From Gemmataceae bacterium (GTDB taxonomy: Bacteria > Planctomycetota > Planctomycetia > Gemmatales > Gemmataceae): 58,880 nucleotides of DNA. The notes under the pieces were generated by a model. That model did no database searches. It was not told where the DNA came from and was given only the letters and a program-made list of their open reading frames with translations. Each line of letters starts with the position of its first letter. Positions within the stretch are counted from its first letter, which is position 1. The stretch lies in assembly GCA_964201235.1 (NCBI GenBank), contig CAXNFS010000001.1, positions 1 to 58,880 on the forward strand, read 5' to 3'. The translations under genes were made by a program, and so were the position numbers. This document shows, in pieces, positions 3,625 to 32,983 of the stretch.

Positions 3625-3636
3625 CTCGCTCTCCGT

Positions 3637-8220: not shown

Positions 8221-8248
8221 GCACTGTTCCATTGGTGCTTGATTTTTA
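8219..8248 (+). terminator. Rho-independent terminator candidate
   Basis: AAGCAC (8219-8224) pairs with GTGCTT (8235-8240) across a 10-nt loop, followed by gaTTTTTa. The stem is only 6 bp. Confidence 0.45.
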
Positions 8249-8329
8249 TTGTGTAACAACATTGGTTTTATGCATTAATATATCTTGTATAGAAATGAAT
8301 GCGATAATTTAAATTCCAAGGGTGGCAAG

Positions 8330-8812
8330 ATGATGATTAAGATAAGTTTATTTGTTTTCATGGTTCTGGGCTTCGAAGAACCAGACACCTCGATTATCCG
8401 AAAAAAATTCGACCAATTGAAAACAAAGGGAACTGCCGAAAGGGTTATCGCTGTTAAGGATGGTACCAAAACAACTTTTTTCAAACGAAAGTTTGAGCTT
8501 GTTAGTTACAACATAGAAACAACGAGTACAGGGAATAAAATTATTCCCTATTTTGCTGTAATCAAATTTCGGGCCAAAGTTAAAACATCAAAAGAATTTG
8601 AAACTACAGAACTTGCTTCTAACGCTGTTTTAAACAATGAATCAGAATCTTTTTTACAATGGCAAGCTATCTACAGACTTGTCAAAGAAAATTGGGCACT
8701 AGAAAACATTGTTTATCGTTCTTCGAATGGCGAGGTATTTGGCGATTTGAAAAACACTACAGATGCTAAACATTTTATCTTTGATTGGTTTAATGCACTT
8801 GATGGTTATTAA
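8330..8812 (+). CDS. Hypothetical small secreted protein
   Basis: The ORF has a hydrophobic N-terminus (MMIKISLFVFMVLG) and GGTGG upstream of ATG 8330. It is bracketed by hairpin terminators. I recognise no family. Confidence 0.5.
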   Translation: MMIKISLFVFMVLGFEEPDTSIIRKKFDQLKTKGTAERVIAVKDGTKTTFFKRKFELVSYNIETTSTGNKIIPYFAVIKFRAKVKTSKEFETTELASNAVLNNESESFLQWQAIYRLVKENWALENIVYRSSNGEVFGDLKNTTDAKHFIFDWFNALDGY

Positions 8813-8830
8813 ACGCATCTAAATAAACAA

Positions 8831-8869
8831 AGCCAGTGGGTGAATATCTACCCGCTGGCTTTATTTATT
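8831..8869. terminator. Bidirectional rho-independent terminator between convergent genes
   Basis: AGCCAGTGGGT (8831-8841) pairs with ACCCGCTGGCT (8850-8860), 11 bp including one G-U pair, across an 8-nt loop. It is followed by TTATTTATT and preceded by AAATAAACAA, which gives a T-tract for the opposite strand. Confidence 0.65.
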
Positions 8870-8881
8870 ACAACTAATCGA

Positions 8882-10291
8882 TTACTGAACAGTTACATTG
8901 AAGGTTTTAATCGTTGCTTCATTACGATTATCAATCAGAGTAACGGTGATTACTGCTGTTCCTGCATTTCCACCTGCAACCAATTTAACCTGACTAGGTG
9001 AAAAAGTTCCCTTTAAACTTCCAATAGTCGCGGTGACTATTGAAGTATCACTACTTGTTACAAGGTAATTCAAAAACCCTGCTGGAGTAGTACCTGTAAT
9101 CGTATTTGTAATTGCCAAATTAGTTGTTGCAGTGCCTACTGGATTGTTGGGGACACTAGCACCGGTAAGCGCAGGTAACGATGCAAGTACATTCCCATTA
9201 ATAGTTGCAGCTTGAGGAGTATAACTGGTTGCAAAACTTTGTAGATTTGTCAAGCTTGCAGAATTGGCAACATTACCAAATACGGCATATCCATTACCAG
9301 TTTGACCAAGCGAACTCGTGTTATCAGTAAGGTTAAAATAGAATTGGCTTGTAGCACTATTTAAATCCGCTGTTCGTGCCATTGCTAATGAGCCAATTGC
9401 ATTTGGGCGAGAAGCATCAAATTCATTAGCAATGGGCTGATAGGTTGCTACATCAGTAAAACTATTAACCACACCAGAAACTGAATTTGTAGTAAACTGT
9501 CCGCCCTGAAGGATTTGGGAAGCACCAGTGCCTGAAAGATTTGCCATTCGATGGAATAAATCATCAGTATATGCGTTATTCTGAGCATAACTTAAAAAAT
9601 TAGTTACAGAAACTGGAGCAGCGGAATCCAATAAAGTCACATCAATCGCGCCTTTGGAGGTGTTGAATGTAATGGTGGTATTCGTGGTATCAGGACTTAA
9701 ATTAAAAGCCGCAAGGTTGTAATAAGAGGTTGAATTTTTTGCGACGGTAGAGTCAGTAAATGCTTTTATCTGAGTCATGGTAAAACCGGTGGCAGTACCC
9801 GAACCAGCGGTAGGAGCTGTGACCCCACTAACACCTGAAGCCCAAAGCCCTAATGAAACCTTTGCAGGGGTAAGTCCGCCAAGACCAAGATTTTGGGTAA
9901 TACTTTGCCCTTCAACAATATTCAATTGAGCAGAGGTTGCAGTTGTACCAGATAAAAATCCTGCAGGAGTTGATCGAGTAACGTTGTAAGAACCAGGAAG
10001 AAGTTGATCGATGGAGAAATTTCCATTCGTATTCGTAACAATAGAATAATTTACGGACCTACCAGTTGTGGTTTCGCCTGTAATTCCAATAGTTACCCCC
10101 GAAACACCTTTGGTGCCCCCATCAACTATGACAGACCCAGTGAGCAAACCGTTGGCATATATAATTGATGTTGTAGGCGTAATTCTTTCTTCAAAAGATT
10201 CTAACTCCGGCCTATATAAACATAAACTAGATGGCTTCTTGCTTTTCTTAACTTCAGCGCCTTTTAACAACTTTAAAAATTTGTTTAACAT
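8882..10291 (-). CDS. Secreted multidomain protein with a cyclophilin-type peptidyl-prolyl isomerase domain
   Basis: An N-terminal LESFEERITP motif is followed by a carboxypeptidase-regulatory/SdrD-B-like segment (TNTNGNFSIDQLLPGSYNV). The cyclophilin blocks are VTNFLSY, FHRM...ILQGGQF, SLAMAR...SQFYFNL and YAVFGNV. There is an Ig-like C-terminus. Confidence 0.75.
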   Translation of the reverse strand: MLNKFLKLLKGAEVKKSKKPSSLCLYRPELESFEERITPTTSIIYANGLLTGSVIVDGGTKGVSGVTIGITGETTTGRSVNYSIVTNTNGNFSIDQLLPGSYNVTRSTPAGFLSGTTATSAQLNIVEGQSITQNLGLGGLTPAKVSLGLWASGVSGVTAPTAGSGTATGFTMTQIKAFTDSTVAKNSTSYYNLAAFNLSPDTTNTTITFNTSKGAIDVTLLDSAAPVSVTNFLSYAQNNAYTDDLFHRMANLSGTGASQILQGGQFTTNSVSGVVNSFTDVATYQPIANEFDASRPNAIGSLAMARTADLNSATSQFYFNLTDNTSSLGQTGNGYAVFGNVANSASLTNLQSFATSYTPQAATINGNVLASLPALTGASVPNNPVGTATTNLAITNTITGTTPAGFLNYLVTSSDTSIVTATIGSLKGTFSPSQVKLVAGGNAGTAVITVTLIDNRNEATIKTFNVTVQ

Positions 10292-11861: not shown

Positions 11862-11936
11862 GCAGCTTAATGGCAATGCCTTAATATTAATTATTACCCG
11901 TACCAACTCAGAGAGTCAGTCATGTTCAATAAAGTG

Positions 11937-11976
11937 GCAATGATTGCTTAAGAAACTAGCATCATTGCTTTATTTT
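11937..11976 (+). terminator. Rho-independent terminator
   Basis: GCAATGAT (11937-11944) pairs with ATCATTGC (11961-11968). The stem is extendable by 3 bp with one bulge and is followed by TTTATTTT. Confidence 0.6.
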
Positions 11977-12153
11977 GAGCATTTTAAAAAAATTCGCCAA
12001 ATCATTTAGCTTATTACCAATCATTTTTACTGTTGTTTTAGCTGATAACTCATTTCTAGCTTTGGTAAGCAAAAACAAATCAAAATTGGCATACAATTTG
12101 CTCAGATTAGAGTTTAGGGGTGCTCTATATTTGTTCTTTTCTAGGGTGTTAAC

Positions 12154-13668
12154 ATGGGTTCGCAAACATCTTCATCAAATAGAATTCTTGGAATTGAAGA
12201 CTCTTCTGCAATTAGGCAACAATCTATTTTTCATGCGTATAAACCTCACCTCAATGCACGAGATGAACTTATTGATTGGAATGGAAAACCTCATCCGCAT
12301 TGTAAAACACTTGTAGATTCAATCGGAAAATTATCTTCAAATGAATTCCAAGACAAAAGATCTGCTGCTGATCTTGCCTTTGTTACCCAAGGTATAACTT
12401 TTTCGGTTTATTCAGATTGCAGAGGGGTTGAAAAGATATTCCCCTTCGACCTTGTGCCGAGACCGGTAGAGGGAAAAGAGTGGACCCGATTAGACATGGG
12501 GCTTAAACAGCGAACCAAAGCTCTTAATCTTTTTCTTTATGATGTTTATCATGAACAAAATATCCTTAAAGATAATGTGATACCGAGGGAAATGGTCGAA
12601 TCTTCCAAAGGTTTCCGAAGGGAAATGATTGGTTTTACACCGCCAGGCAAGCAATATATCCATATCGTTGGCACTGATTTAATTCGAAACCCTGAAGGTG
12701 AATTTTTAGTACTTGAAGACAATTGCAGAACCCCTTCGGGTGTTAGTTATGTAATTGAAAATCGCGTTGTTATGAAACGGATTTTTCCAGACTTATTTAA
12801 AAATATAAAAGTTAAAAGAGTTGAAGATTACCCTCAAAAACTTCGGGATGCTTTATGTTCGGTAGCACCAGAAAATTCTGGCCCTAACCCTCGGCTAGCT
12901 TTATTAACTCCTGGCCCTTTTAATTCAGCCTATTTTGAACATACCTTCCTTGCAGGCAATATGGGTATTGAACTTGTAATGGGTAGCGATCTGTTTGTGC
13001 ATAACGATCGTGTTTATATGAAAACTACTGGTGGACCTAAACGCGTAGATGTCATTTATCGAAGGGTAGATGATGAATTTCTTGATCCCAAAGCATTCAG
13101 ATCGGACAGTATGCTTGGTGTTCCTAATCTTTTTAATGCTTATCTAAAAGGAAATGTGACCATTGCAAATGCAATTGGTACTGGGGTTTGTGACGATAAA
13201 GCAATCTATCTTTATGTTGAGGATATGATTCGTTATTATCTTTCTGAAGAGCCGATTCTTAAAAATGTACCAACCTACATTTGCTCCAAAAAGAATGATC
13301 TTTCGTATGTTCTTGATAATTTAGAAAAATTGGTAGTCAAAGCTGTCAATGAATCCGGTGGTTATGGCATGTTAATGGGACCATTTTCTACCGCTGCTCA
13401 ACGATCTGAATTTAAAGAAAAAATTAAAGCAAATCCAAGAAACTATATTGCTCAACCTGTGGTCACTCTTTCCGCTTGTCCAACTTGGACAGAGGAAGGT
13501 TTAGCACCAAGGCATGTCGATCTTCGCCCATATGTTGTCAGTGGAACCGATACATGGGTTCTACCTGGTGGTCTTACCCGCACAGCATTGGTAAAAGGTT
13601 CACTAGTTGTAAATTCAAGCCAGGGTGGCGGAAGCAAAGATACTTGGGTTATGGAGACTGATGTATGA
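12154..13668 (+). CDS. Circularly permuted type-2 ATP-grasp protein (DUF404/DUF407 type)
   Basis: 504 aa. The blocks GITFSVY, PFDLVPR, VLEDNCRTPSGVSYVIENR, LLTPGPFNSAYFEHTFLA, VDVIYRRVDDEFLDP, KAVNESGGYGM and SSQGGGSKDTWV are typical of this family. Confidence 0.9.
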   Translation: MGSQTSSSNRILGIEDSSAIRQQSIFHAYKPHLNARDELIDWNGKPHPHCKTLVDSIGKLSSNEFQDKRSAADLAFVTQGITFSVYSDCRGVEKIFPFDLVPRPVEGKEWTRLDMGLKQRTKALNLFLYDVYHEQNILKDNVIPREMVESSKGFRREMIGFTPPGKQYIHIVGTDLIRNPEGEFLVLEDNCRTPSGVSYVIENRVVMKRIFPDLFKNIKVKRVEDYPQKLRDALCSVAPENSGPNPRLALLTPGPFNSAYFEHTFLAGNMGIELVMGSDLFVHNDRVYMKTTGGPKRVDVIYRRVDDEFLDPKAFRSDSMLGVPNLFNAYLKGNVTIANAIGTGVCDDKAIYLYVEDMIRYYLSEEPILKNVPTYICSKKNDLSYVLDNLEKLVVKAVNESGGYGMLMGPFSTAAQRSEFKEKIKANPRNYIAQPVVTLSACPTWTEEGLAPRHVDLRPYVVSGTDTWVLPGGLTRTALVKGSLVVNSSQGGGSKDTWVMETDV

Positions 13669-14654
13669 TATCACGCTTGGCGGAACACTGTTTTTGGCTA
13701 AGCAGATATATTGAACGCGCAGAAAACATCGCTCGTTTACTAGAGGTTAATCAAAATTGGTTGCTCGACTTTGATATTCCAGTTGAACTACAATGGAAAC
13801 CACTTCTTATTATCAGTGGCATTCATGATTACAAAGGTAATCTTGATAAGGAATCCATTCTTAATTTCATGACTTGGGATCATGAAAACCCTTGCAGCAT
13901 TGTTTCTTCGATGACTCAAGCAAGAGAAAATGCGAGAGTTATAAGAGAAATCATTAGCGCTGAAATGTGGGAACGACTTAACTATAATTATCTTTGGCTT
14001 CAAAGTAATACAGCTAAAGATTTATACGACAACAATCGGTACGAACTTTACAACCAAATCAAACGAATCAACCAACTTCTTCAAGGTATTGGTGAAAGTA
14101 CCATGCTTAGAACTGAGGCCTGGGAGTTTTACCAATTCGGCAGGCACTTAGAACGGTCTGGCCAAACAGCAAGAATATTAGATGTCAAATACCATATGGT
14201 GCAAAGTAATCCTGATATTTCCGGATCAAATATCGAGATATCCTATTGGACTTCGATTTTAAAGAGTTGCTCAGGTTATGAACCTTTCCTGAAACATGCG
14301 AATATTATTGAAAATCAAGTTGGAAATGCTGTTGCAGAGTTCCTTATTCTTGAAGAGTCTTTCCCTAGATCTGTTTTATATTGCCTTAAAGAATGTCTTA
14401 ATTCCGTCACAGCAATTTCTTACCAATCAAAATCAAAAATCAGCAACAGGACAATTGAGTCTTTGAAAACATTAAACGCTTGGCTATCAAACCAAGAAAC
14501 GAGGCAATCAATAAAAATTCAACTTCACGCTATTCTTACAAAAATAGTCGACAACGTTCACTCGATAAGCGATTCAATGACTAGCACGTATTTTGATTTT
14601 AATCCTGATGATCATGTTTTAGAAATGAATGAAATCGAAAAAATTAACTCTTAA
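13665..14654 (+). CDS. Alpha-E domain protein (DUF403)
   Basis: Starts within ATGA, overlapping the ATP-grasp stop. The N-terminus SRLAEHCFWLSRYIERAENIARLL and the later W.F...GR.LERS block match the alpha-E family. Confidence 0.9.
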   Translation: MISRLAEHCFWLSRYIERAENIARLLEVNQNWLLDFDIPVELQWKPLLIISGIHDYKGNLDKESILNFMTWDHENPCSIVSSMTQARENARVIREIISAEMWERLNYNYLWLQSNTAKDLYDNNRYELYNQIKRINQLLQGIGESTMLRTEAWEFYQFGRHLERSGQTARILDVKYHMVQSNPDISGSNIEISYWTSILKSCSGYEPFLKHANIIENQVGNAVAEFLILEESFPRSVLYCLKECLNSVTAISYQSKSKISNRTIESLKTLNAWLSNQETRQSIKIQLHAILTKIVDNVHSISDSMTSTYFDFNPDDHVLEMNEIEKINS

Positions 14655-14672
14655 TTACAATAAGGAAAGTTA

Positions 14673-17600
14673 ATGGCTATCAAGGTTGCACTTACACACA
14701 CGACCGAGTTCACATATGATAGGCCAGTAACTTTAACACCCCAAGTGGTCAGGTTAAAGCCAGCACCTCATTGTCGAACCCCAATCAAAAGTTATTCTCT
14801 TAAAATTGAGCCCTCCGAGCATTTTATTAATTGGCAGCAAGACCCTTACAACAACTATCTTGCAAGAATTATTTTTCCTGAGCCCACCAGAAAATTTAAA
14901 GTAACTGTTGGACTTATAGCCGAGATGATATCCATAAATGCTTTTGACTTTTTTCTCGAAGATTACGCGGATAATTTTCCATTTTTATATGAAGAAGGAT
15001 TAAAAAAAGAACTTGCACCATTCCTAGAAACCACCGAGAAAGGCCCTTGCTTACTTTCATATATTGAGAAATATTTAAATAAAAAAATTCGAACGGTTGA
15101 TTTCCTTGTTTCATTAAACATGGATCTTCAAAAACACATTGGCTATGTAATTCGGCTTGAATCTGGAGTGCAATCACCCGAAGAGACTTTGACTTTAACG
15201 AAGGGATCTTGCAGGGATACTGCATGGTTACTCGTTCATATTTTAAGAAACCTAGGGCTTGCTGCTCGTTTCGTTTCTGGCTATTTAATTCAATTAACCG
15301 CAGACACACAGTCATTGGACGGCCCTAAAGGCACTGATAAAGATTTCACCGATTTGCATGCTTGGACAGAAGTTTACCTTCCCGGAGCAGGCTGGATTGG
15401 CCTTGATCCAACTTCAGGAATGCTAGCTGGTGAAGGCCACATCCCTCTTGCCTGCAGTGCAGACCCTGGACAGGCAGCACCTACTTCCGGCTCATTCACG
15501 TTCGACAAAAACCCAGACATTATTGATGACGAGTGTAAGTCCGAATTTAAATTCAATATGTCCATTTTCAGAATCGAAGATACTCCTAGAGTCACAAAGC
15601 CTTACACAGACGAACAGTGGAGCAGTATTTGTGATGTTGGTAGCAAAATTGATAATTATCTAAACTCCTATGACGTTAAATTAACTTTAGGCGGTGAACC
15701 CACCTTTGTTTCCGTTGATGATAAAGATGGCGAAGAATGGAACACTTCCGCTCTTGGTCCAACTAAATCTTTATTTGCTGACACTCTTTTACACCGATTA
15801 AAAAACAAATTTAGTCCAGGAGGTTTTTTACATCACGGCCAAGGAAAATGGTATCCAGGCGAAAGCCTTCCCCGATGGGCTTTTAGCTGCTATTGGAGAA
15901 AAGACCTTGTTCCTATTTGGTCGGATTCAGATTTATTTGCTAGAGAAAACACCACCTATAATTTTTCTGAAGTTGACGCTAAAAAATTCCTTGAAGAACT
16001 TGCTGCAAGACTACACGTCAATGTTAATTTTGTGCAACCTGCGTATGAAGATTTATGGTATTTCATGTGGAGAGAACAACGATTACCAACAAATGTTTCA
16101 CCATTAAAAAACAATCATGATAATCCCGAAGAACGCAATCGCATCTCGAAAATTTTCAACCAAGGGCTAGGCAAAGTTGTTGGTTATGTGCTTCCTTTAA
16201 AGTATGAATCGCTAAGCAATCAAAAACATTGGGTAAGTTGCAAGTGGTTATTAAGAAGAGAAAATATTTTTTTAATCCCTGGCGATTCTCCGATGGGTTA
16301 TCGGTTGCCATTAGATTCTATTACTTGGATTGATCCTAAAGATAGAGACCAAATATTCAACCATTGCCCATTAACACCTGCTGATTTACTTCCGAAATTT
16401 CAATCGCAAATTAATTCAATTATTAATACGAAGAATGTAAACCCACCATTACCGACAGAATCAGCAATAAGAACCAGTTTGTGTGTTGAAACTCGTGATG
16501 GGCGAATCAAAGTCTTTATCCCACCTTTAAATTCTGTGGTTGAATATCTTGAACTGCTAAAAAACATTGAGTCAACGGCCCGCTACCTTGGTTACCCTAT
16601 TCAAATTGAAGGTTACCCACCACCTTATGATACCAGGCTTTTAAATTTTAAAATCACTCCGGACCCAGGCGTAATTGAAGTGAATATTCATCCTTCGTCA
16701 AGCTGGGTTGATCTTCACGAAAAATCTTTTATCATTCACGAAGAAGCAAAGAAAACTAAGCTCTGTTCTGAAAAGTTCATGCTGGATGGTCGGCATACAG
16801 GAACTGGTGGGGGAAGCCATATTGTTCTTGGCGGGCCTTCGCCATCTGAGAGTCCTTTTTTACGACGGCCAGATTTACTTCGCAGTATGCTTTCTTATTG
16901 GAACAACCATCCATCGTTATCTTATCTTTTTTCAGGCTTATTTGTTGGTCCTACTTGCCAAGCTCCGCGGCTTGACGAGTCTCGTCTCGATATCATCACA
17001 GAATTAGAAATTGCATTTGAACAAATCCCCGACAACGGAAACGCTTTACCTTGGCTTGTTGACAGGGTTTATAGACATCTTTTGGTTGATTCCAGTGGAA
17101 ATACCCACCGGTCAGAATTTTGTATTGATAAGCTTTATTCCCCTGATAGTAGCACAGGGAGGCTAGGGCTTTTAGAGTTGAGGGGATTTGAGATGGCTCC
17201 AGATTCAAAAATGGGGCTAGTTCAAAACCTTTTGGTTAATGCACTTATCGCAATGTTTTGGAACAAACCTTATAAACAGAAAATGATTAGATGGGGCACT
17301 CAACTTCATGATAAATTTATGCTTCCTCATTTTCTAGAAGACGATTTGAGAGATGTCGTCTTAGAACTTCAAGCTTTTGGTTTTGGTTTGGATGAAAACT
17401 GGTTTAAACCTCATCTAGAATTCCGCTTCCCTAAAATTGGATCTATTTGCAAAGACAATATTAATTTAGAACTTCGAGGTGCTCTTGAACCATGGAGGGT
17501 ACTTGGTGAAGAGAATAACCCTTCTGGAACTGTTCGTTTTGTAGATTCATCACTTGAACGAATTCAACTTAAAGTTGAAGGTTTAATAGACACTAGGCAT

Positions 17601-18089
17601 GTTATTCTTTGCAATGGCTCGAGGATTCCATTTCATCCTACAGGTGTAAATGGCGAATATGTTGCTGGGATCCGTTACCGAGCTTGGCAACCTTCTTCTT
17701 GCTTGCACCCTACCATTCCTGTTCATTGTCCATTGGTATTTGATCTTTATGATACTTGGATGAGTCGCTCTGTAGGTGGATGCACCTATCATGTTGCACA
17801 TCCGGGTGGAAGATCTTATGATAGGTTCCCTGTTAATGCTATTGAAGCAGAAGGGCGAAGATTATCAAGGTTCATCAAGGAAGGGCATACTGCGGATCAG
17901 TTCGGTATTATCGATGAAGAAATCCGGCCTGATTCTCCGTTTACACTTGATCTCCGATATGAAGGAAAACATCAATGGTTAAAGAAGCATTCTAATGATA
18001 AAATTTCAGAAGTAGATTCTAATGATATCCGGGCTAAAGTTTCAAAAGTAAACGGCATTGTTTCACCAGTAATTAGTGGACTTAGTTAA
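14673..18089 (+). CDS. Transglutaminase-like cysteine peptidase fused to a DUF2126-type C-terminal region (1138 aa)
   Basis: The N-terminal Bact_transglu_N-like region reads ALTHTTEFTYDRPV. The transglutaminase core has Cys180 (GSCRD), His229 (DLHAWTEVY) and Asp245 (GLDPT). About 800 further residues resemble the conserved DUF2126 partner of this operon type. Confidence 0.9.
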   Translation: MAIKVALTHTTEFTYDRPVTLTPQVVRLKPAPHCRTPIKSYSLKIEPSEHFINWQQDPYNNYLARIIFPEPTRKFKVTVGLIAEMISINAFDFFLEDYADNFPFLYEEGLKKELAPFLETTEKGPCLLSYIEKYLNKKIRTVDFLVSLNMDLQKHIGYVIRLESGVQSPEETLTLTKGSCRDTAWLLVHILRNLGLAARFVSGYLIQLTADTQSLDGPKGTDKDFTDLHAWTEVYLPGAGWIGLDPTSGMLAGEGHIPLACSADPGQAAPTSGSFTFDKNPDIIDDECKSEFKFNMSIFRIEDTPRVTKPYTDEQWSSICDVGSKIDNYLNSYDVKLTLGGEPTFVSVDDKDGEEWNTSALGPTKSLFADTLLHRLKNKFSPGGFLHHGQGKWYPGESLPRWAFSCYWRKDLVPIWSDSDLFARENTTYNFSEVDAKKFLEELAARLHVNVNFVQPAYEDLWYFMWREQRLPTNVSPLKNNHDNPEERNRISKIFNQGLGKVVGYVLPLKYESLSNQKHWVSCKWLLRRENIFLIPGDSPMGYRLPLDSITWIDPKDRDQIFNHCPLTPADLLPKFQSQINSIINTKNVNPPLPTESAIRTSLCVETRDGRIKVFIPPLNSVVEYLELLKNIESTARYLGYPIQIEGYPPPYDTRLLNFKITPDPGVIEVNIHPSSSWVDLHEKSFIIHEEAKKTKLCSEKFMLDGRHTGTGGGSHIVLGGPSPSESPFLRRPDLLRSMLSYWNNHPSLSYLFSGLFVGPTCQAPRLDESRLDIITELEIAFEQIPDNGNALPWLVDRVYRHLLVDSSGNTHRSEFCIDKLYSPDSSTGRLGLLELRGFEMAPDSKMGLVQNLLVNALIAMFWNKPYKQKMIRWGTQLHDKFMLPHFLEDDLRDVVLELQAFGFGLDENWFKPHLEFRFPKIGSICKDNINLELRGALEPWRVLGEENNPSGTVRFVDSSLERIQLKVEGLIDTRHVILCNGSRIPFHPTGVNGEYVAGIRYRAWQPSSCLHPTIPVHCPLVFDLYDTWMSRSVGGCTYHVAHPGGRSYDRFPVNAIEAEGRRLSRFIKEGHTADQFGIIDEEIRPDSPFTLDLRYEGKHQWLKKHSNDKISEVDSNDIRAKVSKVNGIVSPVISGLS

Positions 18090-18098
18090 AAAGCATCA

Positions 18099-20663
18099 AT
18101 GATTAACACTACCATTCAAAAAAACCACTCACCTCAAAACCAATTTTTTTTGGAAAATTACATTCCATCAAAATTTTCATTCGATGAGTTAAAATCAGGT
18201 ACAGATATTCGGGACCATTGGAAAATATTTGCCCGCTCACTCGAAAGGCTATCACCCGGTGAGTTTAATCGAAGATGGAATGAAGCAAAAGAACAACTTC
18301 GAATTAATGGTGTAACTTATAACCTTCATTCGGATACCCGGGGTATGGACCGACCCTGGCAATTAGACCCTATCCCCTTATTGATTTCTGAAAATGAAGA
18401 AAACCACTTGATAAAAGGCCTTGCCCAGCGGGCACTTTTACTTGAATTAATTCTTCAGGATATTGATGGGCCACAGAGACTTCTTAAAGAAAAACTTTTG
18501 CATCCTGAACTTGTTTTTGCAAACCCTAACTTTCATAGGGCATGCCATGGTTTTAAGCCTGCAGGAAATAAATACCTTTATTTGCTTGCAGTTGATCTTG
18601 CTCGTAATTCCAACGGAACTATCCATGCCATCAGTGATCGGTTGCAGTCCCCATCAGGAACAGGTTACGCTCTCGAAAATCGAATTGTAATGACGCAAAT
18701 GTTGCCTGATATTTTCAACAATTGCAATGTTCAACGACTTGCAATGTTTTTTAGATCTTTTAAAGAAACCCTCAAATCAATCGCTCCTAACAACAAAGAC
18801 AACCCAAGAACAGTACTTCTTACACCCGGGCCTAGAAGTGAAACTTATTTTGAGCACTCCTACCTAGCACGATATCTTGGTTTAACACTTGTTGAAGGTG
18901 GAGATCTCACGGTTCGGGACAACAAAGTTTATCTTAAATTTCTTGATGGTTTACACCCTGTTGATGTAATCATGCGAAGGCTTGATGATCGATTCTGCGA
19001 CCCTCTCGAACTTCAAGCCAACTCATTACTTGGGGTTCCAGGCCTCCTGCAATGCGCAAGAAAAGGCGGGGTGGCAATCGCCAATTCTCTTGGTTGTTCG
19101 TTTATGGAAGCCCCATCTTTAACAACTTATTTGCCAGCCCTTTGTAAAATTTTCTTGGGTCAGGAACTTATAATACCTGGCGTTCCATCATATTGGTGCG
19201 GGGACCACGAATCCCTGAAATATGTATTAAACAATCTTGATAACATGGTTTTAAAAAATGCGTTCACCTCAAGGCGATCAGAACCAATTTTTATAGAAAC
19301 ATTATCCAATAAAAAACGCGAAGAATTCATAGCTCAATTTAAAAACTCACCACAAAATTTTGTAGCACAGGAAAAGCTTCAACTTTCCACTGTTCCGGTA
19401 ATGGGGGAAAACGGGATTGAACCTCGACCTTTAGTCTTAAGAAAATTTTTGTGTTCACATAATTCAGGTTATTCTGTAATGCCAGGGGGGTTATGCAGGT
19501 ATTCATCAAGCCCTTCCACGCAGCTCATATCGGTGCAGCAAGGGGGCGGTAGCAAAGATACTTGGGTATTATCTTCGGGAGAAGTCAGTACTTTTAGTCT
19601 ACTTAACCAAAGTACCGACCCAATTGAAATTAGTAGAGGTGGTAGTGATCTTCCAAGTAGATCTGCTGACAATCTATTCTGGCTCGGCAGATATACTGAA
19701 AGAGCGGACGGCTTAGCTAGACTTCTTCGAGGCATTTTCCTGAAGCTTATTGAATCGCTTAAAATTGCTGATGGTGCAGAAATTAAATCCTTGTTAAAAA
19801 TTCTTTCTCAATATTCACAAGCTTTTTCTTCCATCAATTCTGAACCTAGCGACAAAGAGGAACCAGGCAATCACTTAATATCGATGGTATATGATAGAGA
19901 AAGAATAGGCACTTTTGCAAATGATCTTCAAGCTATTTACCGTACAGCAAGTTCTTCGCGAGATAGAATATCAATTGATATGTGGCGCGTTATAAGCACT
20001 CTGGAAATCCCTTCAAACCCAGAACTGAATATGATGCTAGAACAACCTGAACATTCAAACCTGATTACCATTCTTGATCTCCTTAACCACAACATTGTTG
20101 TTTTAGCTGCTTTTGGTGGATTAATTGCTGAAAGTATGACTAGAGGGCATGCTTGGCGCTTTCTTGATATGGGCAGAAAAATCGAAAGGGCCTCACAAAC
20201 CATACGCTTATTAAAAGGATGTATGATTGATGTTTCAACATCCGAGATACCCTTATACGAATCAATTCTAGAAATTGCTGATAGTTTAATGACTTTTAGA
20301 CGAAGGTATTTAAACAAAATAAATCCTGCTGCTGTTTTAGATTTACTTCTTTCCGATTCATCAAATCCACGATCACTTGTTTTTCAATTAAATTCCTTAC
20401 AAAACAATATAAATCACCTTTCAAAAATGAAAGATACTGGTCGTATTACTCCCCAAGAAAAGTCCATAATGTCAATGCATACTTCTGTTTTATTGGCAGA
20501 CATAGAGTATTTAGTTAGTTCAAACGAATCTGGAAAAAGGATATATCTAGAAAATCTTTTAAGCAACTTGTTTTTAGAATTGTCACAACTATCAGAATCA
20601 ATCGCCCACCATTATCTTGGACATTTGCAATTATCAAGACATCTATCAGGATCTAATTCGTGA
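18099..20663 (+). CDS. Fusion protein: circularly permuted ATP-grasp + alpha-E domains
   Basis: 854 aa. The first ~500 aa parallel the 12154 gene (GVTYNLHSD, LLTPGPRSETYFEHSYLA, VDVIMRRLDD, VQQGGGSKDTWV). The remainder carries alpha-E blocks (ADNLFWLGRYTERADGLARLLR, W.FLDMGRKIERA). Confidence 0.9.
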   Translation: MINTTIQKNHSPQNQFFLENYIPSKFSFDELKSGTDIRDHWKIFARSLERLSPGEFNRRWNEAKEQLRINGVTYNLHSDTRGMDRPWQLDPIPLLISENEENHLIKGLAQRALLLELILQDIDGPQRLLKEKLLHPELVFANPNFHRACHGFKPAGNKYLYLLAVDLARNSNGTIHAISDRLQSPSGTGYALENRIVMTQMLPDIFNNCNVQRLAMFFRSFKETLKSIAPNNKDNPRTVLLTPGPRSETYFEHSYLARYLGLTLVEGGDLTVRDNKVYLKFLDGLHPVDVIMRRLDDRFCDPLELQANSLLGVPGLLQCARKGGVAIANSLGCSFMEAPSLTTYLPALCKIFLGQELIIPGVPSYWCGDHESLKYVLNNLDNMVLKNAFTSRRSEPIFIETLSNKKREEFIAQFKNSPQNFVAQEKLQLSTVPVMGENGIEPRPLVLRKFLCSHNSGYSVMPGGLCRYSSSPSTQLISVQQGGGSKDTWVLSSGEVSTFSLLNQSTDPIEISRGGSDLPSRSADNLFWLGRYTERADGLARLLRGIFLKLIESLKIADGAEIKSLLKILSQYSQAFSSINSEPSDKEEPGNHLISMVYDRERIGTFANDLQAIYRTASSSRDRISIDMWRVISTLEIPSNPELNMMLEQPEHSNLITILDLLNHNIVVLAAFGGLIAESMTRGHAWRFLDMGRKIERASQTIRLLKGCMIDVSTSEIPLYESILEIADSLMTFRRRYLNKINPAAVLDLLLSDSSNPRSLVFQLNSLQNNINHLSKMKDTGRITPQEKSIMSMHTSVLLADIEYLVSSNESGKRIYLENLLSNLFLELSQLSESIAHHYLGHLQLSRHLSGSNS

Positions 20664-21532
20664 AATACCTGATTAAACACACTACTTGTTACAACTATAT
20701 GGATACGGTATCCCTTTGCAGGAATATCATCCATGTATCACCACGAGAATACGAAAATCAACGCAATATTTTTGAAAATATAACCGTTACACCTACTCCA
20801 GAAATAATTGAATTTCAAAAAGATTATTTCGGAAACAAAGTTTGTTTTTTTACAATAGAAAAGCCTCACAAAAATTTAACAATCATTGCTGAATACGAAA
20901 CAGAAGTAACACCTAAAAATTACACTGGGTTTCTAGACCAACCTTGGAAAAAAGTAATCGATTTATTGCATGCAGATTCCTCCATTGAAACCATTCAAGC
21001 GCTTGAATATTTATATGATTCTTATTATGTTCAGAAACATGATGATTGGAAAGAATATGCAAGCAAATCATTCCAGCCTGGGAATTTATTTTTAAACTCA
21101 GTTATGGATTTAACTTCACGAATATTTACTGACTTTAAGTACCAACCGAATGCAACTACCATCGCAACTCCATTGCATGAAGTTTTCTTACAAAAGTCTG
21201 GAGTATGCCAAGATTTTTCGCATTTCCAAATCGCATGCTTACGAAGCTTGGGAATTCCAACCCGCTATGTTAGCGGATACTTACTGACCACCCCCAATCC
21301 TGATAAACCGAACTTAATTGGTTCAGATGCTTCTCATGCTTGGATTCAAGTTTATTATCCTGGAATCGGCTGGTTTGATTTTGATCCAACCAATAATCTT
21401 AGACCTTCAGACCAACATATTATTATTGGTTGGGGCAGGGATTATGATGATGTTAGCCCAGTTAAAGGTGTCATTTTGGGTGGTGAAAACCACACCATAA
21501 CAGTAGGTGTAAGTGTAATTGGAGCAGAGTAA
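20660..21532 (+). CDS. Transglutaminase family protein (Bact_transglu_N + transglutaminase core)
   Basis: GTG start within GTGA, overlapping the upstream stop. N-terminus is IKHTTCYNY. The triad is Cys183 (SGVCQDF), SHAWIQVY and FDFDPTN. Confidence 0.9.
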   Translation: MKYLIKHTTCYNYMDTVSLCRNIIHVSPREYENQRNIFENITVTPTPEIIEFQKDYFGNKVCFFTIEKPHKNLTIIAEYETEVTPKNYTGFLDQPWKKVIDLLHADSSIETIQALEYLYDSYYVQKHDDWKEYASKSFQPGNLFLNSVMDLTSRIFTDFKYQPNATTIATPLHEVFLQKSGVCQDFSHFQIACLRSLGIPTRYVSGYLLTTPNPDKPNLIGSDASHAWIQVYYPGIGWFDFDPTNNLRPSDQHIIIGWGRDYDDVSPVKGVILGGENHTITVGVSVIGAE

Positions 21533-21536: not shown

Positions 21537-24296
21537 TCATCCTGTGTTTTTCAAACCAGAAGCTATGCTACTTATACTTTCCATTACGCCGATTTTTATT
21601 TCTTCAGAGCAAGTTGCTTCGCATCTTGATTTACCAAGCAAAACAATTTGCAGATAACTTAGTGGATCAACATAAGGATTTCTTTTCTCAATTGATTTTT
21701 GAAGAACTGGCATTTGCTCTAATAGAAATTTCTGTTTTGTTATCAAGCAAATGCTTTTTACCGATTTATCATACTCTTCAAAAATAATATTATAAATACT
21801 CTCGGCTATTTTTTTATCTTCAACAAGATCAGCATAAAGCCTTGCAATGGTCATATCAGCTTTAGCAAGAATCATTTGGCAATTATCTACCAAACTTTTC
21901 CAATAAGGCCAAGAATCATACATTTTTTGCAACAATAAAAGGTTATCAGGGTTTTCTTTAATTTTAAAATCTAGCGCACTACCAACACCAAACCACCCCG
22001 GTACCGTATGCCTACTTTGCATCCAACTAAACACCCAAGGAATTGCACGAAGATCATCAATTTTTCTGTTTGAATCTCTTCTAGCAGGCCGAGAACCAAT
22101 TCTTAATTCACCGATTTCATTAATTGGTGTAGATTGCTCAAAATATTCACGTAAACCAGGATTTTCGTAAATTAATCCCCTATATGATTTGCAAGACAAT
22201 ATTGCCAAATCATCAAGTAAAACTTTCCATGAAGTATCTAGAACCGTATCAACTTTAGAAAAACTTGAAAGTAATACCGCGTTGACAACCTGATCAAGAT
22301 GCCTTCGCGCAATTCCTGAATGGTGATAACGATCAGCAATCATCTCGCCTTGCTCTGTTATTCGTAATCTACCATTAACAGTGGCACGAGGTTGAGCAAG
22401 AATTGCTTTATTAGCAGGGCCACCACCTCTTCCAACGGCGCCACCCCGACCATGGAATATTTGAATTCGAATACCACGATCAATTGCTAGTTTTGCCAAT
22501 CTTATCTGAGCATTATGCAATGCCCAAGAAGACGCTAGCATACCACTTTCTTTACTGCTGTCAGAATAACCGATCATAACTTCTTGAAGGTTATTCCTAT
22601 ATTTCAATTGCGAGACATACGCAGGAACACACAACAATCTTTCAATGATTGAATCTGCAGATTGGAGAGGTAGCAAGGCTTCAAATAAAGGCACAATATC
22701 GATTAAACTATAATTATATTTGAGTGAAAAAAGCCCAGCTTCTCGAGCAAAAACCAAAACTTCTAAAATATGATAAGCATCGGTAGTCGAGCTAATGATA
22801 TAAGTAGACAAAACTTCAGGATTTTGTTGCTCCGTTATTGAAGCCATTGTTCGGAATGTTTTAACAACTTCGCAGGTATCTTCGGAATATTTTAATCGTG
22901 CTGGAATCAAAGGGCGATTTTTGTTTAATTCTTCAGACAAAAAATCCAGCTTTTTAGCGGGATCTAGTTGTGAATAGTTCTCCAGTACACCTTCACTTTT
23001 TAATATTTCAGCGAGGGCACGACCATGCCTATTACTATTTTGCCTTATATCTACCCTAAACAAATGAAATTTAAACACTTTAACCAAACAAATCAAATCC
23101 TTGATTGACCCATTTCCTGCATTAGAAAAGCCTTTGGATAACAAATCATCAGCGATAACTTTTAAATCATCTAGTAATTGCTGAGAATGAAAATAAATAT
23201 TTTTAGGTAATTCAACAGGGGAACCCCAACTTAGCTGTAATGTTTTTAAGTACGCAAGAGTATTTTTAAGCTTCTTATCAATTAACAAACACTTCAAACG
23301 ATAAGGTTCATTCATATCCCCTGATTCATCTATAGTGAATAACAACTTGTCATTTGATATTGAATCAATTAATTTTTGGCCTGGCGATATAAAGAGATCA
23401 GCATGACTAAGAATCCCACCAAGAAAATGAATTTGTTTGATGTAATATTTCAGAATTGTTTCTTGATTTAACTTGATAGCACTTTCCGTGACATCGTGCG
23501 TAACAAAAGGATTTCCATCACGATCTCCCCCAATCCAAGAACCAAAACTAAGAAATGCTGGGACATCTATCACTTCACCAGGGAAAACTTTTGTTAAGGC
23601 GTAATCAATATCCCGATAAAACCTTGGTACAATTTTCACCAAACTATCCATTACTGTTTCGATGACCTGACGAACCTCATCTATAACCTTGGGTTTGTCG
23701 TCACGAACGGATTTGGTTACCCAGAAAGTTTCAATTTGTTCGGCGATAGAATTTAATATTTCCGTTTTTTCACTGGGTAAAAGGATTTCATATTCCAATC
23801 GATCAAGGCATAAAGCCAAACAATCTAATTTGTCCAAAACTGTCCTTCGGCGAGCTTCACTCGGGTGAGCAGTAAATACCGGAACAATATTAGCAGATTG
23901 TAAAAGCGTATGAATTTCACAACCCTTAACCCCGGATTCACGGAGCTCTATTAATGCAGCTTCAACACTTTCCCGAAGTGGTTCACGATTATTCAGCATT
24001 TCTTTTTTACGAAGTGACCTTACCCTAGCTTGTTGCTCTGCAAGGTTTAACAAATCAAAATAAACGCCAAAGGCCCTAATAAGCAGCCTTAGATCTTTAA
24101 TTTCAATCCCATCAAGTTTAGAAATCAATTTCCGGGCTTCTATAAGACTGTTAGTTTCTCGAATTACCAATGATTTAGATTTGATTTCCTCAATTAAAGC
24201 AAAAGCCGTTTTACCGGCTTGTTTTAATATGGCATCCCCATGGATTTCACTTAACAAATGAATATCAGAATCCAATGTGCGGGGTATAATGTTCAT
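21537..24296 (-). CDS. ppc: Phosphoenolpyruvate carboxylase
   Basis: 919 aa. It has TAHPSEARRRTV, VMIGYSDSSKESG, FHGRGGAVGRGGGP and the C-terminal ...LKNTG. Confidence 0.95.
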   Translation of the reverse strand: MNIIPRTLDSDIHLLSEIHGDAILKQAGKTAFALIEEIKSKSLVIRETNSLIEARKLISKLDGIEIKDLRLLIRAFGVYFDLLNLAEQQARVRSLRKKEMLNNREPLRESVEAALIELRESGVKGCEIHTLLQSANIVPVFTAHPSEARRRTVLDKLDCLALCLDRLEYEILLPSEKTEILNSIAEQIETFWVTKSVRDDKPKVIDEVRQVIETVMDSLVKIVPRFYRDIDYALTKVFPGEVIDVPAFLSFGSWIGGDRDGNPFVTHDVTESAIKLNQETILKYYIKQIHFLGGILSHADLFISPGQKLIDSISNDKLLFTIDESGDMNEPYRLKCLLIDKKLKNTLAYLKTLQLSWGSPVELPKNIYFHSQQLLDDLKVIADDLLSKGFSNAGNGSIKDLICLVKVFKFHLFRVDIRQNSNRHGRALAEILKSEGVLENYSQLDPAKKLDFLSEELNKNRPLIPARLKYSEDTCEVVKTFRTMASITEQQNPEVLSTYIISSTTDAYHILEVLVFAREAGLFSLKYNYSLIDIVPLFEALLPLQSADSIIERLLCVPAYVSQLKYRNNLQEVMIGYSDSSKESGMLASSWALHNAQIRLAKLAIDRGIRIQIFHGRGGAVGRGGGPANKAILAQPRATVNGRLRITEQGEMIADRYHHSGIARRHLDQVVNAVLLSSFSKVDTVLDTSWKVLLDDLAILSCKSYRGLIYENPGLREYFEQSTPINEIGELRIGSRPARRDSNRKIDDLRAIPWVFSWMQSRHTVPGWFGVGSALDFKIKENPDNLLLLQKMYDSWPYWKSLVDNCQMILAKADMTIARLYADLVEDKKIAESIYNIIFEEYDKSVKSICLITKQKFLLEQMPVLQKSIEKRNPYVDPLSYLQIVLLGKSRCEATCSEEIKIGVMESISSIASGLKNTG

Positions 24297-24516: not shown

Positions 24517-25950
24517 TTACGACAAAATATCTTTTATTATTTTTGCAGGTTCGACACCAGTCAACTTGGCATTAAGGCCTTGAAATTTAAATGTTAAAGA
24601 ATCGTGGTTAATACCTAGCTGATTTAAAATAGTAGCATTTAAATCGTATACACTTACAGGATTTTCAGTGATGTTATAACAAAAATCATCAGTTGAACCA
24701 TATGCAAAACCTTTTTTAATGCCGGCTCCTGCTAGAAAAACAGAATAGCAACGGGGATGATGATCTCGACCATAATTATTCTCTGTAATACCGCCTTGCG
24801 AATAAATCGTTCTGCCAAATTCTCCACCCCAAACTATCAAGGTATCTTCTAATAAGCCTCGCTGTTTAAGATCTATGATTAAAGCTGCAGTAGCTTTATC
24901 AACATCGTTACATTGGCCTTTTATCGCATTTGGCAACCCGCCATGGTGATCCCACCCCATATGAAAAAGTTGGATAAATCTAACATTTCGCTCTGCCAAC
25001 CTTCGTGCAAGCAGGCAATTTGAAGCATAGCTTCCAGGCTTAGATACGTCGGGGCCGTAAAGATCCATAATATGTTTTGGTTCTTTAGAGGTATCGAGCA
25101 GATCAGGAACACTAGTTTGCATCCGAAACGCCATTTCATATTGGCTAATTCTTGTTTGAATTTCCGGATCGCCAACAGCATCAAAATGCTTTTTATTTAA
25201 AGCAGCAATTCTATCAAGCGAATCGCGCCTAGCCCCGGAATCCAAACCTGCCGGGTTTGATAAATATAAAACAGCATCGCCTTTGTTTCTGAACTTTACT
25301 CCTTGATGTTTTGAAGGTAGAAATCCTGCACTCCAAAGGCGATCGTAAAGAGGTTGGTCATCAGGTCTTCCAGTGCCGAATGAAGTAAGGACAACATATG
25401 CAGGCAATTCCTGATTCTCGCTACCCAATCCATAACTAACCCAAGAACCAATGCTAGGTTTACCAGCTAATTGAGAACCTGTTTGGCAAAAAGTAATAGC
25501 AGGGTCATGATTGATTGCTTCGGTATGCATAGATCGGATTAAAGTTATATCATCTGCAACAGAAGATATTCCAGGAATCAATTCACTTAACTCCATGCCA
25601 GACTTTCCATGTTTAGCAAACTTAAAAATGGATGGGGCAATGGGAAATTTAGACTGGCCTGAAGTCATCGTAGTAAGGCGTTGGCCTTTTCTTATAGAAT
25701 CAGGGAGATCCTCTCCTTTTCTAGATATCATTAATGGTTTATTGTCAAATAAATCCATCTGTGAAGGAGCACCCGATTGAAAAAGATAAATAACTCTTTT
25801 AGCTTTGGGTTTAATGTTGGTTGTATTTCCAAACAAACGTTGTGGACGCAAGGAATCCATTGCTGCAGCAGTCATCACCGAAGAAGCACCTTTAAAAAAA
25901 GTCCTTCGGTTCAATTGATCTTGGAATTGCAAAAGATTAGAAATTTTCAT
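24517..25950 (-). CDS. DUF1501 domain protein (Tat signal)
   Basis: NRRTFFKGASSVMTAAA is a Tat leader. It has FQSGAPSQMDLFDNKP, PSIGSWVSYGLGSEN, GGEFGRT and GRDHH. The longest ORF begins with a GTG at 25959. The ATG at 25950 has AGGCG upstream. Confidence 0.9.
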   Translation of the reverse strand: MKISNLLQFQDQLNRRTFFKGASSVMTAAAMDSLRPQRLFGNTTNIKPKAKRVIYLFQSGAPSQMDLFDNKPLMISRKGEDLPDSIRKGQRLTTMTSGQSKFPIAPSIFKFAKHGKSGMELSELIPGISSVADDITLIRSMHTEAINHDPAITFCQTGSQLAGKPSIGSWVSYGLGSENQELPAYVVLTSFGTGRPDDQPLYDRLWSAGFLPSKHQGVKFRNKGDAVLYLSNPAGLDSGARRDSLDRIAALNKKHFDAVGDPEIQTRISQYEMAFRMQTSVPDLLDTSKEPKHIMDLYGPDVSKPGSYASNCLLARRLAERNVRFIQLFHMGWDHHGGLPNAIKGQCNDVDKATAALIIDLKQRGLLEDTLIVWGGEFGRTIYSQGGITENNYGRDHHPRCYSVFLAGAGIKKGFAYGSTDDFCYNITENPVSVYDLNATILNQLGINHDSLTFKFQGLNAKLTGVEPAKIIKDILS

Positions 25951-25981
25951 TGGTATCACGCCTATAACTAAGGTTTTAAAA

Positions 25982-29089: not shown

Positions 29090-29215
29090 AAATCCGCCTA
29101 TGTAAATAATAAGATGCAGTGTCTTTGATAACAGAAGCAAGATCAACAACTGTAAGTTAAAAATCAAGCCATTGAAGATTGTAACTTAAAGTTTCATCAT
29201 CAAAACCAAATAAAT

Positions 29216-32121: not shown

Positions 32122-32230
32122 TTTTATCACCTGATTATTGCTCAAACCAAGCCCCTTGTTCATTTCGACAAAAGACTCATTCTTATTTATTTTTGGTTTC
32201 CAAACACTATTGATTTAGGTTATTTTAAGT

Positions 32231-32965: not shown

Positions 32966-32983
32966 GGCTTAAGAAAGGCTAAA

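Follow-up and report, generated by a model that had tools for sequence, protein, structure and literature searches.

A five-gene operon with a candidate σ54 promoter appears to join two ancient modules of an uncharacterised bacterial amidoligase system

A compact operon in a bacterium of the family Gemmataceae is a member of a known, uncharacterised amidoligase system built from circularly permuted (CP) ATP-grasp, Alpha-E and transglutaminase (TGase)-like proteins. We analysed a 58,880-nucleotide stretch of contig CAXNFS010000001.1 (positions 1 to 58,880), called the window below. It carries five co-directional open reading frames (ORFs), which we call A1 (ATP-grasp), A2 (Alpha-E), A3 (TGase fused to DUF2126), B1 (fused ATP-grasp and Alpha-E) and B2 (short TGase). 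Sequence comparison suggests that σ54, a sigma factor of nitrogen stress, turns the operon on. On balance we lean towards a single σ54-dependent, nitrogen-stress-type operon in which two modules of the amidoligase system, both ancient and each mobile on its own, are combined into a cytoplasmic amide-bond machine, with a metabolite or peptide as the favoured substrate. The gene association itself has been described since 2008-2009. New here are the cross-phylum σ54 promoter evidence, which puts the window operon in a nitrogen-stress context, a corrected parse of the modules, and B1 as a probably inactive ligase. An earlier note on this DNA had missed both the σ54 promoter and the link to nitrogen limitation.

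A candidate σ54 (RpoN) promoter lies directly before the operon. The element, TGGCATACAATTTGCT, sits 52 nt upstream of the A1 ATG in a 292-nt leader. A scan of both window strands for TGGCAYN5TTGCW gave this single match, where 0.21 would be expected. In relatives whose A3 is 71-84% identical, GGCA…TTTGC is invariant, the spacer and flanks vary, and the leaders have a mean column identity of 61%. The organism is expected to use σ54, as one gene of the window codes for an activator of the NtrC family (Response_reg, Sigma54_activat, AAA lid and HTH_8; 47700-49337, plus strand), followed by mutL at 49368-51248; rpoN itself lies outside the window's gene set. When the leader was searched for repeats that might bind an activator upstream, only short, unconvincing ones turned up.

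Two further observations concern the leader. A second string, TGGCA-N4-TTGC at 11935-11948, falls in the terminator hairpin upstream and was rejected as a σ54 site, its GG-N8-GC spacing being wrong; it is conserved at aligned positions in close relatives (L081, L086), probably as part of the hairpin stem. In L083 (3469-5034), and likewise in L084 and L085, the database call for the A1 orthologue (521 aa) begins at or just past the end of the conserved σ54 element, and the true start of these genes is probably a downstream codon that matches the 504-aa protein of the window.

Equal-quality σ54 sites recur before the first gene of the cluster in distant bacteria. They were found in 41 of 93 such leaders, against 13 of 539 control leaders from other genes at the same loci. 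For loci that are not phylogenetically independent, this is an 18-fold enrichment, with an odds ratio of 32 and a Fisher p of 3e-27. The leaders with a site span 25 genus-level taxa, including Pseudomonas, Paraburkholderia, Ralstonia, Limnohabitans, Alphaproteobacteria, Verrucomicrobiota, a Pedobacter metagenome-assembled genome (MAG) and Phycisphaerae.

Nitrogen control of the same gene families has been measured in Burkholderia. The contiguous B. cenocepacia H111 genes I35_5080-5084 (BCAM1233–1237) are common σ54/NtrC targets under nitrogen limitation and drop by log2 8.2, 9.4, 9.4, 6.0 and 3.1 in an ntrC mutant (PMC5491218). Their annotations read, in order, DUF404/407, DUF403, TGase-like cysteine protease, large TGase protein and DUF404/407/403; these are the families of the window operon in the same order (ATP-grasp, Alpha-E, large TGase, fused ATP-grasp/Alpha-E), except that Burkholderia has one more small TGase, placed between the Alpha-E and large TGase genes. 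The regulation is a measured one in Burkholderia and a predicted one in the window; Paraburkholderia and Ralstonia loci share with the window a predicted σ54-type promoter. The co-regulated genes of B. cenocepacia are urease, urea carboxylase, glutamine synthetase and transporters (PMC5491218). The operon of the proteasome-family protein Anbu also carries the ATP-grasp/Alpha-E/TGase triad, and expression of Anbu rises when P. putida is limited for nitrogen (PMC5666114). Marine metagenomes show co-variation of these domains with domains of urea metabolism (PMC3597751).

Comparison across genomes indicates that the operon joins two ancient modules: ATP-grasp/Alpha-E, to which a TGase or Anbu may be added, and TGase-DUF2126 / fused ATP-grasp–Alpha-E / TGase. 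We used A3, the DUF2126 protein, as the anchor for a set of 80 loci, one per species, with 596 confirmed matches overall; each of the two homology searches had at least 8000 candidates, and cluster genes were located within ±10 kb by tblastn with the window proteins. A3, B1 and B2 follow one another contiguously on one strand in 57 of the 72 loci with enough downstream sequence, and 35 loci hold these three as their sole cluster genes within ±10 kb. The arrangement of the window, with A1-A2 directly upstream of A3, occurs in 8 of 77 loci, about 10% of those anchored on A3. Elsewhere A1-A2 lies downstream, is divergent, or is absent within 10 kb, and it is present somewhere in the flanks of 15 of 55 loci. 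Separate A1-A2 pairs have their own small TGase in three loci (L021, L071, L073), and in two others (L035, L056) the pair adjoins a 242-aa proteasome-family gene of the Anbu type. Mycobacterium tuberculosis presumably carries the modules at separate loci, Rv2566–Rv2567(–Rv2569c) and Rv2411c–Rv2409c; we take Rv2566/Rv2567 to be A3/B1, Rv2411c/Rv2410c to be A1/A2, and Rv2569c to be a TGase-like homologue of the B2 type.

Both modules are strongly conserved. Six phyla or more contain the cluster. Identity of A3 stays at 53-60% across Planctomycetota, Acidobacteriota, Verrucomicrobiota, Bacteroidota, several classes of Proteobacteria, and MAGs labelled Binatia and delta proteobacteria; for A1 the cross-phylum figure is 51-58%. 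Within the window, the paralogues share 35% identity (ATP-grasp), 27-29% (Alpha-E) and 23% (TGases), and by sequence these copies are judged ancient, not duplicated within the operon.

The operon is otherwise a recognisable member of its system. Iyer, Abhiman, Burroughs and Aravind are said to have set out the defining domains in 2009: CP ATP-grasp, Alpha-E and transglutaminase, with or without Anbu and with or without a TGase–DUF2126 protein. The earlier note's statement that the association was defined by comparative genomics is borne out by two papers that credit it to Iyer et al. 2009 (PMC5666114, PMC3597751). Like other members, the window has a putatively active and a putatively inactive CP ATP-grasp, Alpha-E both free and fused, TGases with intact triads, and a TGase fused N-terminally to the COOH-NH2 ligase-like DUF2126. 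It differs in having no gene for the optional N-terminal nucleophile (NTN) hydrolase, Anbu, among its ORFs of at least 150 aa, and in packing both modules into one five-gene operon whose A1-A2 has no TGase of its own.

The gene counts speak to the model of the earlier note, which had read the operon as a duplicated module. In that model, A1+A2+A3 and B1+B2 are parallel sets that each perform one step of a two-step or two-substrate pathway to a storage or secondary peptide. The order ATP-grasp, Alpha-E, TGase does appear twice in the operon, and because the eight window-like loci have no small TGase between A2 and A3, the TGase domain of A3 may serve A1·A2. Nevertheless, A3 co-occurs with B1-B2 and not with A1-A2, so the division into the two sets did not hold. 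The level of cross-phylum identity and the core-genome synteny are unlike secondary-metabolite clusters, and induction by nitrogen limitation argues against the making of a nitrogen-rich storage peptide. The model also asks for an ATP-grasp ligase in each set, and the ATP-grasp domain of B1 lacks Mg/ATP ligands in every orthologue, which would leave B1+B2 without that activity. We consider the two-set pathway improbable.

A1 is predicted to be catalytically competent, and B1 is probably not a ligase. We aligned the ATP-grasp domains of 23 A1-type and 61 B1-type sequences. All 23 A1-type sequences share the blocks G-x-D175-L-x-R178 … V-L-E188-D-N190-L-R192-x-P-S-G, D-D-K349, V-V-K396 followed by GGYGM, and H454-x-D456; the window's codons for D175, E188 and N190 lie at 12676-12678, 12715-12717 and 12721-12723. 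The hallmark Mg/ATP elements of ATP-grasp enzymes are D…E-x-N with 13/15-residue spacing, a Lys and a Gly-rich loop, and the counterpart residues of D-Ala-D-Ala ligase are D257/E270/N272. The reversed order of these elements along A1 fits a circular permutation.

The B clade has lost most of these elements throughout. Asp is kept at the D175 column (61/61). No sequence has Glu at the E188 column, where Ala, Ser or Gly stands instead; none has Asn at the N190 column, where 55 of 61 have Arg; and none has Lys at the K349 column, where B1 of the window has P339. The Gly-rich loop is gone and reads RRSEP in the window's B1, whose S179-D-R181 (S179 at 18633-18635, R181 at 18639-18641) stands in for the Glu and Asn of ExN. 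Since the flanking blocks (PSG..Y..ENR; YVL.NL..xVxK) align unambiguously, the loss is conserved and lineage-wide rather than an alignment artefact. The earlier note counted two ligase/peptidase sets, which is probably wrong for B1, where the ExN ligands, the Lys and the Gly loop are lost in 61 of 61 sequences. It had also raised the case of both ATP-grasp copies being degenerate: B1 is degenerate and A1 is intact. B1 is probably a pseudo-ligase retained for binding or scaffolding. The Pfam family description reportedly covers active and inactive ATP-grasp versions, with which the A1/B1 pattern agrees.

The C-terminal part of A3 is probably the second active ligase of the operon, as judged from a structural model. 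The AlphaFold2 model of A3, built from 48 homologues, has a mean predicted local distance difference test (pLDDT) score of 76.5 and a predicted template modelling score of 0.76. In a fold search of the PDB, its DUF2126 region matched YbdK (1r8g, probability 0.99) and many glutamine synthetases (GS) and γ-glutamyl-amine synthetases (0.8-0.99), γ-glutamylmethylamide synthetase 9qur among them; the carboxylate-amine ligase fold is common to all of these. Pfam labels DUF2126 a 'putative amidoligase', and its alignment has dense invariant Glu, Asp, His, Arg and Lys columns, which is consistent with an active enzyme. The earlier note had left this part of A3 as an anonymous DUF2126-type region of about 800 aa; the family assignment stood (E = 0), and in place of the anonymity we propose a GS/YbdK-like ligase fold.

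Both TGase-like domains retain a complete catalytic triad. In A3, Cys180 (TGC, 15210-15212), His229 (CAT, 15357-15359) and Asp245 (GAT, 15405-15407) are invariant in 48/48 and 80/80 sequences. B2 has Cys183 (TGC, 21206-21208), His226 and Asp242, conserved in 57 of 57 orthologues, together with SHAWIQVY and FDPTN motifs. The catalytic codons and motifs that the earlier note had picked out (Cys180, His229, Asp245, Cys183, SHAWIQVY, FDPTN) are all in place. The N-terminal fold of A3 in the AlphaFold2 model matches 3isr, a TGase-like putative cysteine protease (Foldseek E = 2.8e-12), and a profile search against PDB sequences returned 3isr at 9e-7 and TgpA (6g49) at 2e-4.

The Alpha-E domains also keep their signature residues. 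A2 has the Glu-Arg pairs E17-R18 (13713-13718) and E163-R164 (14151-14156), conserved in 22 of 22 sequences, and the corresponding motif of B1 (19698-19703) is kept, with Arg in 74 of 74 and Glu in 69 of 74. The AlphaFold2 model of A2 is all α-helical (pLDDT 87), and a search of the PDB with the Alpha-E model found no structural relatives, the best E being 0.41. Every domain call of the earlier note was recovered by Pfam profile search with scores far beyond chance; none of the five matched an NCBIfam model. All five are predicted to lack signal peptides and transmembrane segments, and by sequence we take them to be cytoplasmic. The operon thus probably has two working ligases that differ in fold, A1 and the C-terminal part of A3. 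Beside these it has one dead ligase domain, a pair of thiol peptidase/transamidase domains and a pair of Alpha-E domains.

The closest solved structure does not supply a function for A1. PDB entry 3n6x, a structural-genomics 'putative glutathionylspermidine synthase', is a close homologue of A1 (E = 2e-170; profile E = 1e-238) and also matches the ATP-grasp domain of B1 (3e-88). The name is the depositors' guess, and we found no paper or ligand information for the entry. We rejected glutathionylspermidine synthetase (GspS) as an identity: neither A1 nor B1 has a GSP_synth or CHAP match at E ≤ 0.01, and the A1 profile recovered no solved GspS structure even at E ≤ 10.

The operon is tightly packed between clear boundaries (Table 1). 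ORF listing and sequence reading upheld the five plus-strand genes, the overlaps, the gaps and the convergent neighbour exactly as the earlier note had described them. The A1/A2 overlap is ATGA (13665-13668) and the B1/B2 overlap GTGA (20660-20663), each of 4 nt; A2 and A3 are separated by 18 nt, and A3 and B1 by 9 nt. A1/A2 and B1/B2 are predicted to be translationally coupled through these overlaps, and the coupling, together with the fusion of ATP-grasp and Alpha-E in B1, suggests A1·A2 and B1·B2 complexes. Upstream, an intrinsic-terminator-like hairpin follows a BBP7 porin gene; the earlier note's terminator was confirmed as a 12-bp stem followed by the U-tract UUUAUUUU (ΔG -16.1 kcal/mol, z = -2.55), and the stem includes an inverted repeat with a perfect 8-nt core (11937-11944 / 11961-11968). 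Downstream, a phosphoenolpyruvate carboxylase gene on the minus strand (21537-24296) converges on B2 across 4 nt. Consensus scans for σ70 promoters and terminators gave counts at or under shuffle expectation, and Rfam had no match.

Table 1. Features of the five-gene operon and its 5' boundary in window coordinates.
Feature	Position	Strand	Evidence
Intrinsic-terminator-like hairpin, closing the BBP7 porin gene; 5' boundary of the unit	11936..11976	+	fold prediction
Candidate σ54 (RpoN) -24/-12 promoter TGGCATACAATTTGCT, GG-N10-GC	12087..12102	+	consensus match
A1, circularly permuted ATP-grasp ligase, 504 aa	12154..13668	+	Pfam CP_ATPgrasp_2, E = 4e-167
A2, stand-alone Alpha-E, 329 aa	13665..14654	+	Pfam Alpha-E, E = 4e-79
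A3, whole ORF, 1138 aa	14673-18089	+	Bact_transglu_N 7e-24, Transglut_core 1e-16, DUF2126 E = 0
A3 N-terminal part: Bact_transglu_N and transglutaminase-like cysteine peptidase/transamidase core	14673..15527	+	Pfam, Foldseek
A3 DUF2126 part, predicted GS/YbdK-like carboxylate-amine ligase fold	15528..17957	+	Pfam, fold search
B1, fused putative pseudo-ATP-grasp (18375-19502) and Alpha-E (19650-20618), 854 aa	18099..20663	+	CP_ATPgrasp_2 4e-140, Alpha-E 3e-69
B2, short transglutaminase-like cysteine peptidase, 290 aa, GTG start	20660..21532	+	Bact_transglu_N 1e-19, Transglut_core 3e-19

A division of labour can be proposed for the two modules. Module 1, A1·A2, would be a competent ATP-grasp ligase with an obligate Alpha-E partner. 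Module 2, A3–B1–B2, would combine a TGase fused to a GS/YbdK-like ligase, a dead ATP-grasp/Alpha-E protein and a small TGase-like peptidase. Nitrogen stress would induce the machine in the cytoplasm, where A1·A2 and the DUF2126 domain of A3 would spend ATP on making amide bonds, which are probably γ-glutamyl or isopeptide bonds. Cleavage or transfer of such bonds through a thioester would fall to the TGase domains of A3 and B2, and B1 would be a non-catalytic subunit for substrate recognition or scaffolding that hands the substrate to B2. When nitrogen is scarce, the cell would use the pathway to scavenge or recycle it.

The substrate is not encoded in the cluster. No small ORF among the intergenic ORFs of 25-89 aa in the 80 related loci and the window was conserved, and none of the groups involved the window; the absence of a precursor gene noted earlier thus holds comparatively. 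The one small-ORF cluster that spanned several taxa was rejected as an antisense artefact inside the A3 coding region. We tentatively place a ubiquitous small nitrogenous metabolite or short peptide ahead of a protein tag, the less probable of the two, because A3 and A1 are as well conserved as enzymes of central metabolism, the cluster encodes neither a tag nor a precursor, the characterised folds nearest to these proteins have small-molecule substrates, and the co-regulated genes are nitrogen-scavenging functions.

Several observations weigh against this reading of the operon. On regulation, 52 of 93 leaders have no σ54 site at our threshold, and all seven loci examined from Acidobacteriota belong to this group, as do two from Planctomycetota; the NtrC-like activator of the window lies 26 kb from the operon without any link to the promoter at 12087-12102; and expression of the Anbu operon of P. 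aeruginosa was unchanged under many conditions (PMC5666114). On the ligases, the equation of E188/N190 with the classical ExN Mg ligands follows from motif and spacing logic, and HMMER found no bridge from A1 to classical ATP-grasp enzymes among PDB sequences. B1 retains D166, R169 and K386, which makes a non-canonical activity conceivable. The GS-like fold matches of DUF2126 have weak E-values, around 1e-2, and a profile search against PDB sequences gave no sequence bridge from DUF2126 to GS or YbdK. On function, the earlier note's statement that no substrate, product or phenotype has been demonstrated for the system still stands for the open literature and bioRxiv up to autumn 2026. The assays that we found for any member were all negative or uninformative: Rv2411c and Rv2567, termed candidate enzymes with ATP-binding domains, fail to make γ-aminobutyric acid (GABA)-trehalose (bioRxiv 10.64898/2026.04.15.718621), and Rv2569c shows broad, non-specific proteolysis in vitro that cysteine-protease inhibitors do not block (PMC11081392), a result with no bearing on its role in the cell.

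Known γ-glutamylation pathways offer a partial parallel to the metabolite reading. Where PuuA or GmaS works with a thiol γ-glutamyl hydrolase, a GS-like ligase is likewise matched with an amide hydrolase that depends on Cys, and nitrogen controls the pair. Unlike these pathways, the cluster lacks genes for an oxidase, a dehydrogenase or a transporter, and its ligase is highly divergent, with no similarity at the sequence level. The ATP-grasp and Alpha-E components of the window have no counterpart there.

The same parts could serve protein or peptide tagging, an idea reportedly advanced by Iyer et al. in 2009, which we regard as unlikely, yet as a serious rival. The ligases would attach an amino acid or short peptide by isopeptide bonds, the TGase-like peptidases would process or remove the tag, and tagged proteins would be turned over, recycling amino acids in nitrogen starvation much as Pup, PafA and Dop do with the proteasome. 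Control by nitrogen limitation fits such recycling, and the Pup/proteasome system is itself tied to survival in nitrogen starvation. The DUF2126 fold falls in the GS-like ligase class, to which PafA and Dop also belong, and a GS-like ligase beside a deconjugating activity resembles PafA/Dop as a functional analogue, not as a family member. The TGase-like enzymes are papain-like thiol enzymes whose closest sequence match, TgpA, is named a protein-glutamine γ-glutamyltransferase. Proteasome-like Anbu genes stand beside A1-A2 orthologues in some genomes (L035 and L056), an association also described in PMC5666114.

Other features of the loci disfavour tagging. No conserved small ORF for a tag lies in or near the 80 clusters, and the window has no Pup-like tag gene, AAA unfoldase or proteasome. 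Neither Anbu nor another proteasome gene occurs among the window's ORFs of at least 150 aa or at most A3-B1-B2 loci, and clustering of the flanking ORFs found no family of compartmentalised protease or unfoldase that recurs beside A3-B1-B2. The hydrolases are TGase-like thiol enzymes, not Dop-like ones, and PafA/Dop structures are not among the top fold matches of DUF2126. Where Anbu was co-expressed with its operon partners, nothing changed (PMC5666114). A variant would dispense with a gene-encoded tag altogether: during nitrogen starvation, a conjugation/deconjugation system would mark proteins with amino-acid or γ-glutamyl-type isopeptide tags, with A1·A2 and the GS-like domain of A3 as writers, the TGase domains as erasers or transferers and B1 as reader. 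We hold this more specific proposal to be doubtful, a shade below tagging in general.

Systems of a different kind fit the data poorly. Graspetides are made by ATP-grasp enzymes, and a cluster for such a ribosomally synthesised and post-translationally modified peptide (RiPP) would need a precursor; no conserved ORF of that kind was found in the 80 loci and the window, the ATP-grasp proteins of the window are of the permuted type, and the cross-phylum identity and stable chromosomal synteny stand in place of a patchy distribution. Anti-phage defence finds no match to any of the five proteins in PADLOC. For secreted, virulence-type proteases there is the report that Rv2569c is a secreted protease that cleaves E-cadherin, to which the authors assign a cysteine-protease-type domain (PMC11081392). 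Its activity is insensitive to E-64 and N-ethylmaleimide (NEM) despite that domain (PMC11081392), the window proteins lack signal peptides and transmembrane segments, and free-living Planctomycetota, Acidobacteriota, Verrucomicrobiota and Proteobacteria carry the cluster with stable synteny. We judge all three very improbable, and retain the nitrogen-stress amide-bond machine as the preferred reading.

Gene neighbourhoods vary around a constant core. Clustering of the flanking ORFs showed no conserved neighbour gene beyond genus-level synteny, and relatives with 71-84% identical A3 retain the five-gene order and flanks. In four Comamonadaceae loci (L062, L065, L070, L076; about 7100-9990, minus strand), a ComEC-like protein of 830-945 aa (Competence, DUF4131 and Lactamase_B) is encoded between divergent A1-A2 and A3, which is probably lineage-specific synteny only. 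In two different proteobacterial lineages, a gene for methylene-tetrahydromethanopterin dehydrogenase (MTD) lies directly upstream of the Anbu-type gene, between B2 and a convergent A1-A2 (L035, 16804-18404; L056, 16910-18522).

The rest of the window is a typical Planctomycetota chromosome. Its GC content gives no indication of foreign origin, and a MAG from Lac Pavin, assigned to Planctomycetota, is its closest public relative at 96% identity. Two pairs of PSCyt1/PSCyt2/PSD1 (895 and 1061 aa) and DUF1501 (463 and 480 aa) genes flank the operon region on both sides, at 2233-6324 and 24517-29167, both on the minus strand. At 29464-30378 (minus strand), a MerR/HTH_17 regulator with B12-binding domains has the architecture of CarH/LitR-like light or B12 sensors; it is divergent to a σ70-family sigma factor gene at 30553-31350 (plus strand), and the two may form a light- or cobalamin-responsive pair. 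A run of the sugar-oxidation type follows at 31378-45355 (plus strand), with two short-chain dehydrogenases/reductases, two 3-keto-disaccharide hydrolase-like proteins, a PQQ-like β-propeller, a 1296-aa ThuA/F5_F8_type_C/DUF7133/cytochrome c protein, a GFO_IDH_MocA oxidoreductase and a sodium:solute symporter; a 503-aa ORF within it (35086-36597) has no Pfam match. Another ORF without a Pfam match, of 1118 aa at 51370-54726 (plus strand), is rich in Leu, Glu, Ser and Lys with a coiled-coil look, and the strongest AT skew of the window (0.24, 52001-54000) overlaps it.

Among conserved bacterial systems whose enzymology can be recognised but to which no substrate is assigned, this gene set is one of the most widespread. 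The window adds a compact single-operon version rather than a new system, and offers no unique leverage beyond that. Its features suggest where to look: under nitrogen limitation or the control of a σ54 activator, with A1·A2 and DUF2126 as the two ligases, B1 as a non-catalytic partner of B2, and no precursor gene expected in the cluster. In B. cenocepacia, the cluster ranks with the genes whose dependence on NtrC is strongest, with log2 fold-changes down to -9.4 (PMC5491218). If the protein-tagging variant were true, bacteria would have a third pathway of this sort in addition to pupylation and ubiquitin-like systems, and thousands of genomes, that of M. tuberculosis among them, would carry it. 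If the working model of a nitrogen-stress amide-bond machine is true, it would add a new branch, driven by ATP, to the ways in which bacteria scavenge or recycle nitrogen.

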